64,000 bases of DNA from a virus (IMGVR_UViG_3300011008_000010:1-64000), one strand, 5' to 3'; positions 39,608 through 56,429 are shown, numbered from the stretch's first letter. Translations and numbers: made by a program. Notes: generated by a model from the sequence alone, not told the origin.

Positions 39608-40186
39608 ATGACCATCGATATGTCAAAAAAAGAAGGTCTTAAAACCGGAGAATTATTACTTTTGGAAGACATATTGTATTTAAGCAAAAAGTATGTGAGC
39701 AAAGAATCGGAAAATTTTGAAAATGAAACTAATGATTTTTCTGAAAATTTTGAACAGGAAGAAATACCGACAGGAGATCATTATTGCATAAAATCTAAAA
39801 AAGGATTGGCAAAAGATCTGAATGTATCTCTTAAGACTATATATAACTATCTTCTGACTCTTGAAAAATATGGGTTTATTTATCGTGTAAAAAAGTATCC
39901 GAAAAGAATCTATGTCAACATGAAGGATATTTCTAAATATTTAGGAGGTATTGATGAAGATGGTCATGTTTTAGAAGGGGCTAAAAGATTTTCGGTATAT
40001 CTCGATCATATCAGATTGTTAGAAATGGATCTAAGAACATGGAACAGAGAAAAGAATGATTGTATAAAAACAGAAACGCAAAAAGGGACAGAACAAAATT
40101 CTCAAAATACAAAAATAATTGAGAATAAAAACGGGCATATATACTCTGTTTTAGATGAAGATGATTTTAGTTGGGTTAAAAATTAG
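39608..40186 (+). CDS. winged-HTH protein, probable replication initiator
   Basis: GLAKDLNVSLKTIYNYLLTLEKYGFIYR; immediately followed by iterons. Confidence 0.7.
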   Translation: MTIDMSKKEGLKTGELLLLEDILYLSKKYVSKESENFENETNDFSENFEQEEIPTGDHYCIKSKKGLAKDLNVSLKTIYNYLLTLEKYGFIYRVKKYPKRIYVNMKDISKYLGGIDEDGHVLEGAKRFSVYLDHIRLLEMDLRTWNREKNDCIKTETQKGTEQNSQNTKIIENKNGHIYSVLDEDDFSWVKN

Positions 40187-40207
40187 TTAAAGATTAAATG
40201 AAAAATT

Positions 40208-40281
40208 GTAAGTATTTACCGCTTTGTAAATACTTACCGCTTTTTTTGTAAATACTTACAACGTTTTTTGTAAATACTTAC
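40208..40281. repeat. iteron array: GTAAATACTTAC x3 at 22-bp spacing plus one inverted copy
   Basis: Direct copies at 40226, 40248, 40270; inverted copy at 40208. Confidence 0.9.
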
Positions 40282-40391
40282 ACACATAGATATATATAAA
40301 AGATTGTTTCGCCCTCTCCGAGCGGGCGATGGTTGAGAACCATATTTTAATTTTTTTATTTATTTCTTTTGTTTATATATATCTTATTGTT

Positions 40392-40517
40392 TGTAATTTA
40401 AATAATATCTGTAACCTAAACAATAATTATAATTTAAACAATATCTGTAATCTAAATAATACTTGTAACTTAAATAATGTTTGTAACTTAAATGATAATT
40501 GTAATTTAAATGATAAT
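40392..40517. repeat. 7 x 18-bp AT-rich tandem repeat (TGTAAYYTAAAYRATANT)
   Basis: Units start at 40392, 40410, 40428, 40446, 40464, 40482, 40500. Confidence 0.9.
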
Positions 40518-40624
40518 TATATCGCGCGCGCGCGTAATGCGTAAGGAAGGTATATGTCTGATAAAATAAATATGGCTGATAAAATAAAAAATTTTTTTCG
40601 CCCCACATTCTTATAACTTCCCTC

Positions 40625-40653
40625 TTGCAATTCTTTTAAAAGAGATATATAAT
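40625..40653 (+). promoter_or_regulatory. sigmaA promoter
   Basis: TTGCAA-17 nt-TATAAT. Confidence 0.7.
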
Positions 40654-40711
40654 CCAATCAGTGAGGCGAACGTTTTCTTAAATTTGCTTAGGTGGCAAGG
40701 AGAAAAATCTT

Positions 40712-40951
40712 ATGGCAGTAATGAGTCAGGAAGAAATCCAAAGAATTGAAACACAGAAAGAATATGACAAAGGGTTTCTGAGACTTGTTAAAGCTAAATA
40801 CTCCTTGAAGTATAAAGCTCCACAAATTGAAATGATGTCTGCTTCAATCTTGAGAGAACTTGAAAAGATTTACAAGTATCTTGAAGAACAGGATCAGGTT
40901 GAATACCGGAAGGATTTAATTGCAAGATTAAAAGCGGCTGATGAAGAATAA
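40712..40951 (+). CDS. hypothetical protein
   Basis: 79 aa, AAGGAG RBS. Confidence 0.75.
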   Translation: MAVMSQEEIQRIETQKEYDKGFLRLVKAKYSLKYKAPQIEMMSASILRELEKIYKYLEEQDQVEYRKDLIARLKAADEE

Positions 40952-41166
40952 AGAGCGAAGAGTGATGGCTTGATGGTTGATGAATGAAGAGTAGAATTTT
41001 AGAGATAGGTGCTGTGAAGCCGTCAGATGCCCTCAGATCGATTTTAAGAGTGGTTTAGGTAAAAAGTATCGAGGAGATATATAAAATTGATTCTGGGGCA
41101 AATGGTAAGACGAGAAGGGTATATTAATTTTTTAGAGAGAGGCAGAAAGAAGGAATTAGTGTTGCT

Positions 41167-41487
41167 ATGAATAAGACAGAGTTGATTAAAGCGGTATCTG
41201 ATAAAACATATTATTCCCAGGCTCTTGTAAAAGAGATTCTTTATGCCGCACAAGACGTTGTTGTTGAGAATATGGCAGATGGAGAAGAAGTAAGAATTTC
41301 CGGGTTTGGAAAGTTTTGCGTGAAGAGGAGGGCTGCAAGAAAGTATAAAGGATTTGACGGAAAGGTACGTCGAAGAAAAGAAACTTATATCCCTTGTTTT
41401 GTTGCTTGGGAAGGGCTCAAGAAAAAAGTAAAGAGGGCTGGAAACATAAGAGAAAATTTTTGGTCCGGTGCGAAATACAATCGTTAA
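41167..41487 (+). CDS. hup: HU-family DNA-binding protein
   Basis: MNKTELIKAV...GEEVRISGFGKF...P.F.....LK..V. Confidence 0.9.
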   Translation: MNKTELIKAVSDKTYYSQALVKEILYAAQDVVVENMADGEEVRISGFGKFCVKRRAARKYKGFDGKVRRRKETYIPCFVAWEGLKKKVKRAGNIRENFWSGAKYNR

Positions 41488-41891
41488 AGCATTTAATAAG
41501 ATTTTTATGGTGCAGAGGTGAGAGGTGAGGATACAAAAAGCCAATCTGTGCGAAAAGAGGATAGAGAATAGAGAGGTCCTGCTTTAGTGGACGATTCAAA
41601 ATAAAGCGGTGCGTCACGTATGACGAACGTGTGTCCGTATAGCATTCAAGAGAACGGCCTTGCTACCGTGAGGATGCGAAAAACTATCTGTAAGAGATAG
41701 ACCATAGACCGTGATAGCAATAGTCGGTGATTTACAGATGTGTGCCGGAGTTGGGCAAGGATGCCACCTTTAAGGTTTAGCAAGTGCATCGAAGCGGTTT
41801 CAAGGCACATAGAAACAAAAAACGCAATTTTTGTATTTATAGACGCTGATTTGTGGAAAAATCACATCTATAGAAACAGAAATGTAAATAA

Positions 41892-41962
41892 TGGGCGTTA
41901 GTTCAGCAGTAGAACGGAAGTCTTATAAACTTCTAAGAGGTGTGCAACTCACCTACGCCCGA
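41892..41962 (+). tRNA. tRNA-Ile (anticodon UAU)
   Basis: TGGGCGT/ACGCCCG acceptor, GTTC/GAAC D stem, GAAGT-CT TAT AA-ACTTC anticodon arm, AGGTG-TGCAACT-CACCT T arm; no encoded CCA. Confidence 0.8.
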
Positions 41963-42019
41963 TGCGCTCATACTACTACCCTAACTGGTTTTATGAGTTT
42001 CCTTGGATCCGAGGTGGTT

Positions 42020-42090
42020 TGCGTGGTAGCTCAGTTGGCTAGAGAGCACGATATATCGTGAGGTCGCAGGTTCGAGTCCTGCCCATGCTA
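42020..42090 (+). tRNA. tRNA-like gene with collapsed anticodon loop (pseudo-tRNA)
   Basis: TAGCTCAGTTGG D arm, GCAGG-TTCGAGT-CCTGC T arm, but anticodon arm is CACGA-TATA-TCGTG. Confidence 0.7.
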
Positions 42091-42375
42091 TTTAAATATT
42101 TCATGTTTCGTGGCCGTGCGGTACGGTCAGGAGAATGCATAATAAGGGAATTCCTCACACCTTTCTTTTTCCCCGCGTTCCCGCATAATATACCGCAAAT
42201 GTGCGCATCGGTATTTTGGGTGTTATATCACGTAGGCTCGCGATAAGAGCATGGTAAACGCGCACATGGCGAAATCTGTGAAATTCAGAGCTTCGGATGC
42301 TTATTCTCCTCTTTTAAACCGAAACCGTTAAAGCCGGGGTTATGGAAATTTTATAAAGAGATATATAATTCTTCG

Positions 42376-42405
42376 TTGACTTCTTTTTCTTTTTCGTGAT
42401 ATAAT
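42376..42405 (+). promoter_or_regulatory. sigmaA promoter ahead of the structured RNA and RNA polymerase
   Basis: TTGACT-18 nt-(TG)TATAAT. Confidence 0.75.
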
Positions 42406-42411
42406 TTCCAT

Positions 42412-42852
42412 CGGCGATAAGAGGATTCTTACGTTTTAGAGAAATGGATGTCTCTGTTTCAAACGCAGGTTGTAACCAAAGAGGTCGGCCAGGGTCGATT
42501 CGGAGAGAGACAACCGAAATAAACAGCCTGTATGAGCATTGTTGGAAACAATAATGCGGCTGTAGCCCAAAGCAGTTCTGGCAAGTCCGTCCTTGCAGAC
42601 GGTGAGCAAGGTAAGTCCTGTGTGGGAACGCAGGCGCGGGGAGTTTATCCAGTTTACCATAACAAACTGGCATCATACGGAGTAGCACACGGGTATCCGC
42701 TCGGCGTCGTGAAAGAGCGTATGAAAGAATCATTAAACATGTAGCCATAACCAGGAAAATTGTGAAACTTAAAAACGAAACGCGTTGATATCCTAGGGTT
42801 TTTGATCGGGGACGCAATTTAGATGGTTATGAGGAAGAGCGCGTTCTTCCCC
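42412..42852 (+). ncRNA. candidate structured ncRNA or long 5' leader
   Basis: GC-richer than flanks; multiple helices with G-U pairs on + strand and GNRA tetraloops. Confidence 0.55.
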
Positions 42853-43027
42853 CATATTTCAAAAAATATGGAAGCACAGCTTCTTCTTTTGCACATTGAG
42901 AACAAGGAAAAGGTTTCGAGCGAAAGCTTCCTGCACAATCAAGCTTATGCCTGTTGATGTGAGGAGGCTTATTGGTCGTAAGTGGAATAAAAGGATTAAC
43001 AGTCTGTCGTATAAAGAGGTATTGACA

Positions 43028-45757
43028 ATGGCTCTGTCAACACAGTATTTCTCCTATTCCGTATCGACCGGAGACTTCGACACGCCGGAAGAACGGGAAT
43101 TATACAACAAGATGATGTTGAATAAAAGGAGAAATAAGGGATTAGCGGATATAAAGGACCGGATGATCAAAGAAGGTCGTGCGGTACGAGGATTTAAAGG
43201 GAATAAAAAAGACAAAGAAGAACTTAAGCGGGCTGTCATTGAAAAGTACAAGGCAGTTGCAAAAGAACGAAGTTTTTCAAAACGCGCCGCAGAATACAAA
43301 GAAATGTATTCAGAGGCGTTAAAGGCGTGTACAGAAGTAAGATCTCTTTCTCCCGGTTCAATCTGTGAATATAATCAAATTTCTTTGTTTGAATCAATTC
43401 TTTCAAAGACTCTTGGGATTAAACCTAATGAAACAACAATGGATCTGATTACGGTTCAGGTATATTTCTATACAACAATGGAACAACTTATCAAGAGAGG
43501 TTTTACTTTAAACGGTGAAAAATACCAATACTATACTTCTTCTGCTGCTGCGATTCGTTTGAAAAAGGGTATGTTTATTAAGTCTTCAACTTATGAAAAA
43601 CATAAAATGGCTTTGACTTGTGGCATGCCGGTTGAAGAGATTAATAAACGTGCCCAGATTAACGCCACAAAGTTTTTGGCTTATACTGCTCTTCCGTCTT
43701 CTGCCGTTGATATCTGGCCTACGGATTTTGTTGAAGCTTTAAGGATGGGAATGGGTTCTTTTAATATCCGCAGATGCATTGTTGTTCCGGATTATGAAGT
43801 AACGGTCAGAGGCGTTGTCGATCATCTTGACAACGAAACTTATGCAATCACCCGTCAGGAGATGGATGTTGCTTTTGACAGAGTGGACGGATGTGGGATG
43901 GTTTTGCCCAGAGTGAGTGATAAGAATTTTGTTTTTCGTGCGCCTTGGATGAAGGGGCTTCTTTGCAGTTTTGATTTTTTGAGGTTCATTGAAGAGAACT
44001 ACGCTTCTCCGAAGATTGTTGATTATTGGGGAAAAGAATGGGACGTCATAGAGGATGATATTGAAGTTATCTTTACGGACTCTATGCTGAAGCTTGCAAA
44101 ATGTTACAAGAGCTGGGACGAGTATTGTACAAATTTTGAAAAGTATGGTTGTCTTGCCGGTATTGCAAATATGGAAGGTCCGAAACCGTTAAAGGCCAGA
44201 TATAATTATCAGTATCTGCAATCTCTTACTGATATGACAGATGATGAGATTCGGATTTTGACCATGCAGTCTAATACGACGCTTAGAGAGTTGTCGAGCG
44301 ATAAAGAAACGATGCTTCGTGTTCTTGGTGCGACAGATTATAATATGAACCGGACTCCTTGGCAGAACGCGTTGGCTTTGTATCCGGAACTGTTAAAGGA
44401 TGAATATGCAAAGAAAAAATTGAGAGACGCGAAAAACAGTTTGGTTAAGAAATTTAAAAGCGCAAAGCTTGAATCCAGAGGGTTTTTTACTTTTGTCATT
44501 CCGGATCTTTATGCGTTTTGCGAACATTTGTTCCTTGGAGAAGAAACGCCAAAGGGATTATTACATGCGAACCAATGTTCGTGTAGGCTGCTCTCTCACT
44601 CTGACGAATTGGTTGCTATGAGAAGTCCTGCTCTATATAGAGAACAGGTATTGTTAAAAAATATTTACAGAGACGATCCGAGAATACAGGATTATTTTGA
44701 TACGGACGCAATCTATATTTCCAATCATGATATGTTGGCCAGAGTGGTTCAATTAGATTATGATGGAGACAGGCTTATGGTAACTGCCGATCCAACATTT
44801 AGAGAGGTCGTAAAGCGCAATTGGAGAAACGATGATGTGGTTCCTCTGTATTTTGATTTAAAACACGCAGAGGGCGTCGAATTGAATTCTGAAAACATAT
44901 GGATTGCTTTACAGAGGGCATTTCAGGCAAATAAGATTGGAGTTTATGCGAATCTTATTACTAAAGCATGGAACAGCGCAGAGGATTGGCTTAGTATGTC
45001 TTCTGAAGACAGGCAATTAATTTTAGACGTGGTAAAGTATTTGACACTTGAAGAAAATATCAATATTGACAGTGCAAAGTCCGGATATAATATGACCAGA
45101 ACAAGCGAGGTTGATAAAAAAATAAAAGACTGTATCGGAGGCAAGAAGGTTCCGTATTTCTTTAAATATGCAAAAGACAGGGCTGACGAACAGGTTGAGG
45201 AGTGGAATGCCAGCGTTATCAATCGTATCGGATCTGCAATCATTAACCCTCGTATTAAGTTTACGGCTGAAAATCTTGGGAAATTAGATTGGCGTGTGTT
45301 GGTGAGTAATCCGAACATACGTGTAGAAAATGATGTGGTGAACGTATATTCGAATGCGGTTAGAGGGTCTCATATCAGACTAACTCCACCCAAGTCCGAT
45401 TATGGTAACGCCGAAACTAATTATTATGCTGCTATCAAAAATTTACAGGACGAGATCAAAGAAAGTCTTCCGGAATATTCCTGGCAGGACATATGCGATA
45501 TGGTATTCAAGTATTTATATTACATTCGCAAGAATGTTGTTCGAAAAGATTTTGCCTGGGCTGTATTTGGGGACGTAATCGTAGAAAACATCCGAAAGAA
45601 AGTGCCGAAGGAGTCTGTACAGTGCGAGGTTTGCGGTACAAGATTTATTCCACAGACGGCGAGCTCTCATCAAAAGTATTGCGAGCATTGTGCAAGGGAT
45701 GTTCGACGCGCAAAAAACAGGGAATACAAGAGAAAAATGAGGGCTAAACTTTTGTAG
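43028..45757 (+). CDS. yonO: YonO-like single-subunit DNA-dependent RNA polymerase
   Basis: DGCG, FRAPWMKG, NYQYLQSL, RSP, catalytic LDYDGD, C-terminal CEVC..CEHC zinc ribbon; GAGGT RBS at 43028. Confidence 0.9.
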   Translation: MALSTQYFSYSVSTGDFDTPEERELYNKMMLNKRRNKGLADIKDRMIKEGRAVRGFKGNKKDKEELKRAVIEKYKAVAKERSFSKRAAEYKEMYSEALKACTEVRSLSPGSICEYNQISLFESILSKTLGIKPNETTMDLITVQVYFYTTMEQLIKRGFTLNGEKYQYYTSSAAAIRLKKGMFIKSSTYEKHKMALTCGMPVEEINKRAQINATKFLAYTALPSSAVDIWPTDFVEALRMGMGSFNIRRCIVVPDYEVTVRGVVDHLDNETYAITRQEMDVAFDRVDGCGMVLPRVSDKNFVFRAPWMKGLLCSFDFLRFIEENYASPKIVDYWGKEWDVIEDDIEVIFTDSMLKLAKCYKSWDEYCTNFEKYGCLAGIANMEGPKPLKARYNYQYLQSLTDMTDDEIRILTMQSNTTLRELSSDKETMLRVLGATDYNMNRTPWQNALALYPELLKDEYAKKKLRDAKNSLVKKFKSAKLESRGFFTFVIPDLYAFCEHLFLGEETPKGLLHANQCSCRLLSHSDELVAMRSPALYREQVLLKNIYRDDPRIQDYFDTDAIYISNHDMLARVVQLDYDGDRLMVTADPTFREVVKRNWRNDDVVPLYFDLKHAEGVELNSENIWIALQRAFQANKIGVYANLITKAWNSAEDWLSMSSEDRQLILDVVKYLTLEENINIDSAKSGYNMTRTSEVDKKIKDCIGGKKVPYFFKYAKDRADEQVEEWNASVINRIGSAIINPRIKFTAENLGKLDWRVLVSNPNIRVENDVVNVYSNAVRGSHIRLTPPKSDYGNAETNYYAAIKNLQDEIKESLPEYSWQDICDMVFKYLYYIRKNVVRKDFAWAVFGDVIVENIRKKVPKESVQCEVCGTRFIPQTASSHQKYCEHCARDVRRAKNREYKRKMRAKLL

Positions 45758-45987
45758 CTTTAAAGGCGATATATAAATTAGTAGTGTCAGCATTCGACTT
45801 TATGTTCGATTGTCTTAAAATCCCATAAAATCAAGCATTTCTAAATCTTGTATGATAGAGTTTCTAATACACAACATCTTGAAACCCAATAATTTCAATC
45901 ATTTTGAATGTTTTTTATTTTACGCTTTATGGAGACCTTTTTTTGTCTCCGTGGATTAAAAGGTAAAAAGGTTAGAAAGGATCTTCT

Positions 45988-54831: not shown

Positions 54832-56429
54832 CTGAAACTTCCCACACCAAAAGGTGTGTTGCACATTGAAAATTCAATATTTTAGCCGAAAAAGAAAGGC
54901 ATAAACCCGTTTCTTTTGGTATGATTGAATTAGCGAAAAACAAAAATTCCAAAAGGAGGCTTATGCCATGTCAATCATACCACAGAATCAAGACGATTTG
55001 AACCTTGTCAATGCAATTGAATCGTTCATCTCCGAGTTCAGAATCGGCAGGTTGCTCGACCGTTGCAATGCCCGCAAAGAGAAGGGCATACCGGTCATGC
55101 AGGTGTTTCGATACAAGCTCTGCAATGTTTTCAACGGCATGAGCATGTATATGCAGCAACGCACAAATTCGTTCCGCGAGAGTTTTTCAAAAAACACGTA
55201 CTACCGATTCCTAAACGGAACGAAAACAAACTGGCAACGGTTTACAACTTTGCTCTCTGCGGATATCATAAACAAAAAGCTTCGAGACCTCACCGCAGAG
55301 GACAGGGTAAACGCTTTCGTCATTGATGACAGTCTCCATGAGCGTCAGGGCTACAAAAGGACGGAGCTGGCATCATCGGTTTTTGATCACAGCGACATGA
55401 AATACAAAAAAGGCTATCGGCTGATGACGCTTGGGTGGACGGATGGCAACACATTTATGCCAATCAACAGTTGTTTGCTCGCTTCGTCAAAAGACGAAAA
55501 CATTAAGGGCACCACCAAAGTGTTTGATAAGCGTTCCGTTGCCGGTAGGCGCAGGGCACAGGCCAGACGCAAGGGAACGGATGTCATGCTGGAACTTCTC
55601 CGGACAGCGTGTTCTGCCGGACATTCCGCAGAATATGTGCTGTTTGACAGCTGGTTCGCGAATCCACATCAGATTGTCAGCATCAAGGATATGGATCTTG
55701 ATGTTATCGCCATGGTAAAAAAGAGCTCACGAATTCACTATCAGTTTGAAGGAGAGTCTCTCTCCATTAAGCAGATATTCTCTCGCTGTAAGAAGAGACG
55801 CGGTCGTTCCAGATATCTGCTGTCAGTCGATGTTATGGTCGGCAAAAATGACGGTGAAAGCGAGCATCCAATTCCGGCAAAGATTGTATGCGTCCGAAAC
55901 AAGAAGAACCGCAATGACTGGATCGCGTTGATCTGCACGAACACAGATCTTTCCGAAGAGGAGATCATCCGCGTTTATGGAAAGCGCTGGTCGATCGAAG
56001 TGTTCTTCAAAACGTGCAAGTCGCGGTTGAACCTCGTAAAGGAATGTCACTCTTTATCCTATGATGCACTCACGGCCCATGCTGCGATTGTCTTTACCCG
56101 CTACATGATGATTGCTCTTGAACAGCGAAGGAATGAGGATCAGCGGACACTTGGCGAATTGTTCTGTTACTTTGTCGCCGAGTTGTCGGATATTACATTC
56201 AGCAGGTCGCTACAGATCCTGTTTGACGCACTGATGGAAAGCCTTCTGTCAGTACTAAAGCTTACCGAAGAGCAAATATCCGCATTCATGAACGATTTCG
56301 TCGGACGGTTGCCGGATTACATGCAAAAAGCACTTTTACCTGAGCCCTCGGCCGCCTGAATGATAATTGGCACGGCTAAACTATTGATTTTTCAAGGTGC
56401 GTGTCCCATTTACGTATGGGAAGTTTCAG
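54832..56429 (+). mobile_element. insertion sequence (IS4-like DDE)
   Basis: Terminal IRs CTGAAACTTCCCA/TGGGAAGTTTCAG; flanking direct repeat TTACCAA (54825-31, 56430-36). Confidence 0.92.
54968..56359 (+). CDS. DDE transposase
   Basis: VIDDS, LFDSWF, YGKRWSIEVFFK (Y-2-R-3-E-6-K type signature). Confidence 0.95.
   Translation: MSIIPQNQDDLNLVNAIESFISEFRIGRLLDRCNARKEKGIPVMQVFRYKLCNVFNGMSMYMQQRTNSFRESFSKNTYYRFLNGTKTNWQRFTTLLSADIINKKLRDLTAEDRVNAFVIDDSLHERQGYKRTELASSVFDHSDMKYKKGYRLMTLGWTDGNTFMPINSCLLASSKDENIKGTTKVFDKRSVAGRRRAQARRKGTDVMLELLRTACSAGHSAEYVLFDSWFANPHQIVSIKDMDLDVIAMVKKSSRIHYQFEGESLSIKQIFSRCKKRRGRSRYLLSVDVMVGKNDGESEHPIPAKIVCVRNKKNRNDWIALICTNTDLSEEEIIRVYGKRWSIEVFFKTCKSRLNLVKECHSLSYDALTAHAAIVFTRYMMIALEQRRNEDQRTLGELFCYFVAELSDITFSRSLQILFDALMESLLSVLKLTEEQISAFMNDFVGRLPDYMQKALLPEPSAA

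Follow-up and report, generated by a model that had tools for sequence, protein, structure and literature searches.

The window analysed here, a stretch of 64,000 nt, comes from a 137.8-kb IMG/VR virus record (IMGVR_UViG_3300011008_000010) of an uncultivated SPbeta-like phage. On its + strand it carries a yonO homologue (43028..45757) encoding a single-subunit two-barrel RNA polymerase of 909 aa. The gene starts with an ATG at position 43028, its product is 37% identical to SPbeta YonO across 99% of the length, and a borderline Pfam RdRP match was obtained for it. Polymerases of the YonO type run the late programme of SPbeta-like phages. On the 5' side, 936 nt separate yonO from tRNA genes (41892-42091), and the RNA leader described here lies within this interval. 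The same order, namely one or more tRNA genes, approximately 1–1.1 kb without called genes and then yonO, was observed in all close relatives with enough flanking sequence.

A convincing gene was also missing from positions 40186-41891, the 1.7 kb on the 5' side of the tRNA genes, so that about 2.8 kb preceding yonO is gene-poor. The 230-nt gap on the 3' side of yonO (45758-45987), where a late promoter used by YonO would be expected, contains an extended -10-like site, TGTATGAT, and a strong terminator hairpin (GGAGACC-TTTTTTT-GTCTCC) located just 5' of a YonG_N-like gene. In phi3T, Goe11, Goe14, SPR, BUCT083 and other phages, the yonO match fell into two parts separated by extra ORFs, one of which is a GIY-YIG nuclease. 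This arrangement suggests that introns or inteins with homing endonucleases reside inside yonO in these phages.

All useful relatives were obtained by exact-protein look-ups of the closest YonO clusters and are metagenomic contigs. They comprise a group at 85% YonO identity (L085–L088 and L175–L177) and a group at 74% identity (L002, L089–L091, L173 and L174). The leader family is narrow, with about eight distinct sequences, all of them metagenomic, and the samples appear to be of rumen or gut origin. The region had no match in 50,697 phage records searched with blastn, nor in 80 distant yonO loci searched with blastn and nhmmer. In IMG/VR, scanning for patterns of the 3' module of the leader and of RNA1, a neighbouring structured RNA, gave nothing. 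BLAST against 401 sampled genomes of one candidate host order (the order of one Lachnospiraceae genome) revealed no copy of the leader and returned only chance matches of 25–47 nt to the AT-rich promoter.

For the polymerase itself, no close relatives were found in IMG/VR by searches with the single protein or with the close-clade alignment. The close-clade alignment yielded one distant relative (37%) in JGI metagenomes, and a broader alignment of 16 YonO sequences gave no relative above 42% identity in GTDB genomes. Most distant yonO genes, including that of SPbeta, have a small ORF directly on the 5' side and a short leader, with no long gap. The long leader therefore represents a solution specific to this lineage at the point of entry into yonO.

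A sigma-A-type extended -10 promoter was identified by a consensus scan at positions 42376..42405 (+ strand). It consists of the -35 element TTGACT (42376-81), an 18-nt spacer, TG at 42397-98 and the -10 hexamer TATAAT (42400-05), and it agrees with the consensus at 11 of 12 positions. It was the sole promoter-like site detected by the scan across 41500-43200 (1.7 kb), and no second site of this kind was found between 42405 and yonO. Judged from the position of the promoter, transcription would start at about 42412. The distance from the end of the -10 hexamer to the yonO ATG is 623 nt.

The promoter architecture, TTGAC(T/A)TC, an 18-nt spacer and TG(G/A)TAT(A/G/C/T)AT, was kept in three clades (L085/86/87/88/176, L089/90/91 and L173/174), and the distance from promoter to yonO was 544–654 nt in every relative reaching that far. 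The promoter formed the best-conserved block of the interval between the tRNA genes and yonO, with diverging flanks. An earlier note on this DNA, made from the sequence of the window alone, had placed an extended -10 promoter more than 600 nt 5' of yonO, and both its near-consensus sequence and its conservation in relatives bear this out.

Several coding explanations of the interval were considered and rejected. A minus-strand ORF of 167 aa (42314-42817) and an ORF of 70 aa (42532-42744) showed no Pfam match, no RBS by eye and no conservation of frame. For plus-strand ORFs of 44 and 36 aa in the region, a Pfam match and, by eye, an RBS were likewise missing. Stop-to-stop frames of the leader exhibited no cross-clade similarity, translated matches between the window and L086 switched frames, and the gene callers behind the relatives' contigs called nothing in the leader interval. 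A decayed yonP was also rejected, as tblastn of 108 small ORFs from the 5' side of yonO in other phages gave no match in the leaders.

Known RNA families were searched with cmscan against Rfam 15. No match was obtained for positions 42092-43027 at E<=10, and around the locus only the two tRNAs were reported. The leaders of L085/86/88/89/91 and L176/177/173 gave only tRNAs and one chance-level CrcZ match. In the case of the T-box (RF00230), there was no match at E<=10, and neither a T-box sequence nor a specifier architecture was detected. A conserved AUAAC hairpin loop holds an Ile codon, yet this codon does not track the neighbouring tRNA: L085 combines tRNA-Ile(GAU) with AUA, and L091 combines tRNA-Ile(UAU) with AUU. 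GOLLD and ROOL were not matched in the window at E<=10 or in the relatives at E<=1.

A group I or group II intron, intact or decayed, was rejected because no intron model matched at E<=10 and no ORF was present; the leader, moreover, is not inserted in a gene: a promoter precedes it, and the yonO start that follows is intact. According to the earlier note, a known family, a decayed intron or a lack of covariation would speak against a structured RNA at this place. No family or intron model was matched, covariation was found in the 3' module, and the proposal of a structured RNA therefore stands.

The strongest part of the leader in terms of evidence is this 3' module of 150 nt (42741..42890, + strand). 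It contains stem P_a (42746-52/42825-31) and stem P_b (42757-64/42813-20), junction hairpins at 42774-86 and 42791-812, the latter carrying UAUCCUA, and further hairpins at 42833-50, 42852-71 and 42872-82, after which a U-rich tract follows. A covariance model, R1, was derived from just two sequences, those of the window and L086, and over its first 91 nt its structure coincides with the minimum free energy (MFE) fold of the window. In addition to L086, it matched L177 (2e-44), L176 (4e-26) and L085/L088 (1e-5). The junction core of the module was absent from L085.

In an alignment of five distinct sequences, which was partly fitted to the model and leans towards it, 97.1% of pair cells were standard, compared with 39–52% when the 3' partners were slid by 1–3 columns. 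Both sides were altered in 16 of the 45 pairs, and the observed values were attained in 0 of 500 shuffles. Because of the fitting, the pair count was repeated for just the four collinear rows. Among the pairs that differ from the window in these rows, 23 were kept and 3 were broken, while slid controls kept 28–55%. The module was also more conserved than its surroundings. Stem P_a occurred as CAUAACC/GGUUAUG, CAUAACU/AGUUAUG, CAUAAUC/GAUUAUG and CGUUUAC/GUAGACG.

G-U pairs in the 3' module outnumbered A-C mismatches by 26 to 4, which identifies the + strand as the RNA strand, the one that the earlier note had favoured on the basis of G-U pairs. GNRA loops, which it had read in the same sense, were not conserved, with GAAA replaced by UUU(A) and GGGA by UUCG in relatives. 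Two of the helices it had proposed, 42746-53/42824-31 and GGAAGA/TCTTCC, were backed by covariation.

At the end of the 3' module lies a weak terminator-like hairpin, GGAAGCACAGCUUCU, with six pairs, three of them G-C, at 42870-42884, followed by UCUUUUG (together 42870..42890, + strand). Its sequence was kept in L086, L176 and L177 and, with changes, in L085. In the terminator scan, the equivalent was not called in L086, and nothing comparable was observed in L089 of the 74% clade. Since the hairpin is weak and was not found in the L089 clade, attenuation is only a candidate mechanism. An alternative pairing, AGGAAG/CUUCUU, exists as well, although its purine/pyrimidine-rich composition makes it uninformative.

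A nearly invariant 14-mer, TTGCACATTGAGAA (42889..42902, + strand), was present in all leaders of L085/86/87/88/176/177. A second copy of this 14-mer, TTGCACATTGARAA, the only other one in the 137.8-kb record, was located on the + strand at 54859-54872. It lies just 3' of a hairpin (CACACC-AAAA-GGTGTG) in a 238-nt gap before ORF 54968-56359, at 109 nt from this structural-region gene of 463 aa, and an extended -10 element, TGGTATGAT, is found 3' of it at approximately 54919-54927. The 14-mer was chosen post hoc, with about 0.6 chance repeats of that length expected per 620-nt query, and the significance of the repeat is therefore weak. Searches of the phage record with the models and the 14-mer gave no further copy of the leader modules.

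The distal 5' UTR (42903..43027, + strand) comprises a hairpin at 42924-32/42962-70, with the equivalent AGGCUUCU/GGAGGCCU in L086/L085, and the RBS AGAGG at 43015-19, so the leader is folded up to the RBS. In L175, a phage of the 85% clade, a free-standing HNH endonuclease gene (L175:2-1129; 375 aa, PF01844) extends to within 6 nt of the shared GAGG ribosome-binding motif, and the last base of its stop codon lies 9 nt before the shared ACGAGGTATCGGGGG block. The L175 contig stops inside this gene and covers nothing on its 5' side. As the HNH gene abuts the RBS motif, translation initiation in that phage would not be coupled directly to the fold.

The remainder of the leader was divided by alignments into a 5' module (42412..42526, + strand) and a central module (42527..42740, + strand), the latter also by a second covariance model, R2. 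Two motifs, AACCAAAGAGG (42474-84) and UAUGAG (42531-36), were common to the window, L086, L085 and L176. A hairpin in the 5' module, UUCGG/CCGAA (42499-518), covaries, with CCAGA/UCUGG in L086 and CCGGAA/UUCCGG in L085. The helix 42465-73/42523-31 of the earlier note was predicted in the window alone, and no counterpart was found in L086.

In the central module, the window and L086 were about 70% identical, and each hairpin was kept with changed sequence. The first hairpin (42536-57) is GCAUUGUUG/CAAUAAUGC in the window and CAUUGUU/AACAAUG in L086, and its sequence is changed in L085 as well. The second (42558-76) has the conserved loop AGCCCAAAG, which reads AGCNCAAAG in both the window and L086. 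At 42587-602, CCGUC/GACGG in the window corresponds to GUCCU/AGGGC in L086, and at 42616-34, CCUGUGU/ACGCAGG corresponds to CCUC-UUCG-GAGG. The hairpin at 42649-70, with loop ACCAUAAC, is CCAGUUU/AAACUGG in the window and UCGGUUU/AAACCGA in L086, a case of two double changes. One double change separates the stem 42673-79/42718-24 in the window (UCAUACG/CGUAUGA) from that in L086 (CCAUACG/CGUAUGG); it encloses a hairpin at 42690-703 (CGGGU/GCUCG in the window, GGGGU/GCCCU in L086).

The helices that the earlier note had drawn at 42536-57, 42617-34, 42649-55/42664-70 and 42673-79/42718-24 were thus recovered in L086. For CCGTC/GACGG, the sequence proved specific to the window, and what L086 retains is a different hairpin at the same position. 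Altogether, seven of the eight helices in that note have a counterpart in relatives.

Model R2 detected L086 at 4e-71 and L085 merely at 0.0016. In L085/L088, L176 and L177, flanks 92–97% identical to those of L086 surround unrelated sequence in the central interval, and near-identical flanks around unrelated centres mark the central domain as an exchangeable cassette. Between L085 and L088, a helix of the cassette differed as AUCCUG/UAGGAU versus ACCCUG/UAGGGU (U-A to C-G). The thermodynamic z-scores of the cassettes were modest, ranging from -0.7 to -4.1, with -0.7 for the central module of the window. Cassettes of 200–270 nt were located at L085:2512-2724, L176:~480-730 and L177:1-268. Short blocks were distributed among them as a mosaic, with GGGGUAUCCGCCCUAAG in L086 and L176 and GGGACGUG in L176 and L177.

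The folding energy of positions 42412-43030 corresponded to z = -2.5 on the + strand and z = -1.1 on the - strand. Conservation of the overall fold was assessed by moving the whole-leader single-sequence MFE structure to a relative by sequence alignment. The transferred structure kept 38% (window to L086) and 47% (L089 to L173) of the varied pairs, compared with 32–45% for slid controls, while double changes exceeded those of slid controls in both cases (13 versus 3–9 and 16 versus 4–8). As the transferred structure hardly beats the slid controls, only the local helices are supported. One global fold across the 615-nt leader was not conserved, and the centre was unalignable among L085, L176 and L177. 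RNAalifold on plain MAFFT alignments of the divergent variants was uninformative due to misaligned stems.

The earlier note had described a single RNA of about 450 nt. Its length holds approximately, as the structured part extends to about 42890 (~480 nt). The picture of one RNA has to be replaced by a chain of modules, with more hairpins up to the RBS, a centre exchanged between close relatives and a global MFE fold that is not conserved.

In the 74% clade (L089, L091 and L173), the leader is equally long, and RNAalifold predicted 131 pairs for it from these three sequences, with double changes in 28. Leaders of this type were not detected by models R1 and R2. In common with the window, they have the promoter, the position, the length, the same total span and five ordered motifs (UAUGA, CCAAAGC, AUAAC, UAAC-AGG and UAUCCUA). 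On these sequence features, the leader of the 74% clade appears analogous to that of the window and is probably homologous to it.

Between the tRNA genes and the promoter, covariation revealed a separate structured RNA, designated RNA1 (42199..42337, + strand, in the context 42092-42375). Its long-range helix (42199-206/42260-67) is changed on both sides in four lineages, being AUGUGCGC/GCGCACAU in the window, GCAUGCGC/GCGCAUGC in L086/85/88/176, CGAACAUGC/GCAUGUUCG in L089 and CGGAUAUGC/GCAUAUCCG in L091. The hairpins GCUC/GAGC, UCUG/CAGA and CCG/CGG are enclosed in RNA1, and the inner hairpins covary as GCUC/GAGC, GUCC/GGAC and GCCUC/GAGGC and as UCUG/CAGA versus UAUG/CAUA. The MAFFT alignment of RNA1 contains gaps at odds with these helices. 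In L085/86/88, an intrinsic terminator lies between RNA1 and the promoter. RNA1 had no Rfam match (cmscan, Rfam 15, E<=10), and a search for RNA duplexes between RNA1 and the leader returned only meaningless full-length duplexes.

The two tRNA genes, both on the + strand, are a tRNA-Ile(UAU) at 41892-41962 and, directly 5' of RNA1 at 42019-42091, a tRNA-like gene that has no normal anticodon loop. tRNA genes occupied the same position in all relatives. In L089 (1900-1960) and in L091, a different, truncated tRNA-like element was observed, with D and T arms and almost no anticodon arm. The tRNA-like element may serve as an RNase P/Z processing signal for RNA1.

Taken together, the region 5' of yonO very probably contains a real, uncatalogued RNA leader, structured and strand-specific, that is preceded by a conserved promoter of host type. 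The central claim of the earlier note, a structured + strand RNA with its own promoter directly 5' of yonO, was thus confirmed by the conserved promoter, the covariation and the lack of a match to a known family. With respect to function, the best explanation is that the yonO mRNA begins with a modular 5' leader that would act in cis to control yonO expression, for which a probability of roughly 0.5 appears appropriate. In its favour are counted the promoter conserved in three clades, the lack of a strong terminator before yonO, the folding that reaches the RBS, and the 74%-clade leader, which is of similar length and has double changes in 28 of its 131 predicted pairs.

In the proposed mechanism, the host sigma-A RNA polymerase would start at about 42412, before YonO exists, and would have some 615 nt to transcribe ahead of the yonO start codon. 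The resulting RNA would fold as a chain, consisting of the 5' module, the exchangeable hairpin cassette and the conserved 3' module. In the latter, two stacked stems are predicted to close a three-way junction, followed by three hairpins and the U-rich tract, and one more hairpin would form just before the ribosome-binding site. The leader and yonO would be co-transcribed, and the fold would act in cis on the amount and timing of YonO. Via YonO, the leader would time the switch to YonO-dependent late transcription. The likeliest routes would be partial premature termination or pausing at the 42870-42890 hairpin and U tract, and/or effects on mRNA stability and ribosome access.

The earlier note had offered a riboregulator and a standalone RNA as alternatives. 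Of the two, the riboregulator is better supported, since a second promoter is missing between the RNA and yonO and the one terminator-like hairpin there is weak and not universal. Against it, a sensor of one conserved signal would not be expected to have unrelated centres in near-identical phages.

In the main rival, one or more stable non-coding RNAs, released by weak termination or processing, would act in trans, with yonO expressed by read-through. Such RNAs could be decoys against host defences that are RNA-guided or depend on an RNA antitoxin, or partners of YonO or another phage protein. We regard this reading as possible though doubtful. In its favour, the cassette is replaced between 92–97% identical flanks and each version keeps its own helices, a pattern of diversifying or modular selection; the turnover could also be neutral replacement of a tolerant peripheral domain. 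A hairpin and U tract do end the 3' module, but this terminator is weak and not universal, and a processing site could not be identified. RNA1 appears free, being bounded by the tRNA-like element and, in L085/86/88, by a terminator. Against the rival, the Rfam scans matched no module to a catalogued antitoxin or decoy RNA, and no copy was found in the 401 sampled genomes of the candidate host order or elsewhere in the phage record.

A more far-reaching reading, considered unlikely, is that the leader is more than a cis regulator and carries exchangeable RNA modules released in the cell as decoys or antitoxin mimics against RNA-dependent host defences, or as an RNA cofactor, template or mimic engaging YonO. 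The two-barrel polymerase YonO is a relative of cellular RNA-dependent RNA polymerases, and 6S RNA engages bacterial RNA polymerase. If this version were true, the tRNA-flanked RNA1 would belong to the same set of RNAs, and engagement of YonO would be 6S-like. The earlier note had likewise suggested an RNA partner of the polymerase, a suggestion that nothing in the present results supports.

It is rather improbable that the region is a mostly non-functional spacer, left by a decayed gene, an intron or recombination, in which hairpins arise by chance or act as simple mRNA stabilisers. Modest thermodynamic z-scores (-0.7 to -2.5), the non-conserved global fold, the narrow family and the homing endonucleases and introns active around yonO in relatives would all agree with a spacer. 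They have to be set against a 3' module more conserved than its surroundings, with 23 pairs kept and 3 broken, and against an equally long, covarying leader retained in an independent clade. Moreover, no group I/II intron or other Rfam match at E<=10, no ORF and no YonP remnant was found.

Very unlikely is a DNA-level element such as a pac/genome-opening site, an origin or a YonO-specific autoregulatory promoter: the 950-bp non-coding yonR-yonP gap 5' of yonP-yonO in SPbeta holds the pac/opening point, a pac site could lie within the 2.8-kb gene-poor region of the window, and the 14-mer recurs once, again after a hairpin, in a structural-gene intergenic gap, but the helices keep pairing through double changes, the 26 G-U pairs against 4 A-C mismatches on the + strand fit RNA and not duplex DNA signals, the 14-mer repeat is post hoc and near chance expectation, the gap after yonO, the expected place of a late promoter, contains no 14-mer, and pac sites are not known to require covarying stems.

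Under the preferred reading as a cis-acting leader, the fold at the entry to yonO would represent a concrete candidate control point for the timing of the polymerase. The uncatalogued RNA family, together with the second one next to it, joins the few large structured RNAs beside phage tRNA genes. Cassette turnover between near-identical phages is unusual for a leader and, if selected, would point to RNA modules in phage–host conflict.

Among known systems, the yonR-yonP-yonO region of SPbeta resembles the window in having a non-coding stretch before the yonO transcription unit. It differs in lacking a long leader, since its best promoter-like site is only 27 nt away from yonP on the 5' side, in that its gap holds the pac/opening point, and in having no sequence similarity to the leader of the window. 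An unannotated RNA has been reported in SPbeta at the YonO late promoter, located 3' of yonO and before yonK, and how YonO finds its promoters is an open question (Forrest et al. 2017, PMC5467207).

GOLLD and ROOL are comparable in their size of several hundred nucleotides, their ornate fold, their phage or prophage setting and the tRNA genes directly on the 5' side. In contrast to them, the RNA of the window has its own promoter, runs into a protein gene, belongs to a narrow family and is supported at the level of local helices only.

Processive antitermination RNAs such as HK022 put and the Bacillus EAR act in cis on the host polymerase and are elements of about 70–120 nt with defined two-stem architectures. 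By analogy, the leader may be likened to them as a folded stretch at the head of a phage or long operon, although no similarity was found in the Rfam scan and no series of downstream terminators to be bypassed is evident. The P4 CI RNA and the c4 RNA of P1/P7 are small stable immunity RNAs of phages of Gram-negative hosts, cut from the leader of the operon they control. Their specificity regions, which differ between phages, may be analogous to the exchangeable central cassette; no sequence or Rfam match was identified, nor any target repeats with complementarity to the cassette.

The closest likeness is to the structured cis leaders of Firmicutes, namely the T-box (RF00230), ribosomal-protein and attenuation leaders and orphan riboswitch candidates. 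These likewise combine a sigma-A promoter, a long folded non-coding leader, hairpins with a U-rich tract and a controlled gene, with conserved junction nucleotides and variable stems. The leader of the window differs from them in having no Rfam match at E<=10, a weak terminator that is absent in one clade, and an exchangeable centre. Unlike most of them, it is also longer (615 nt), and the gene that it would control is that of a phage RNA polymerase.
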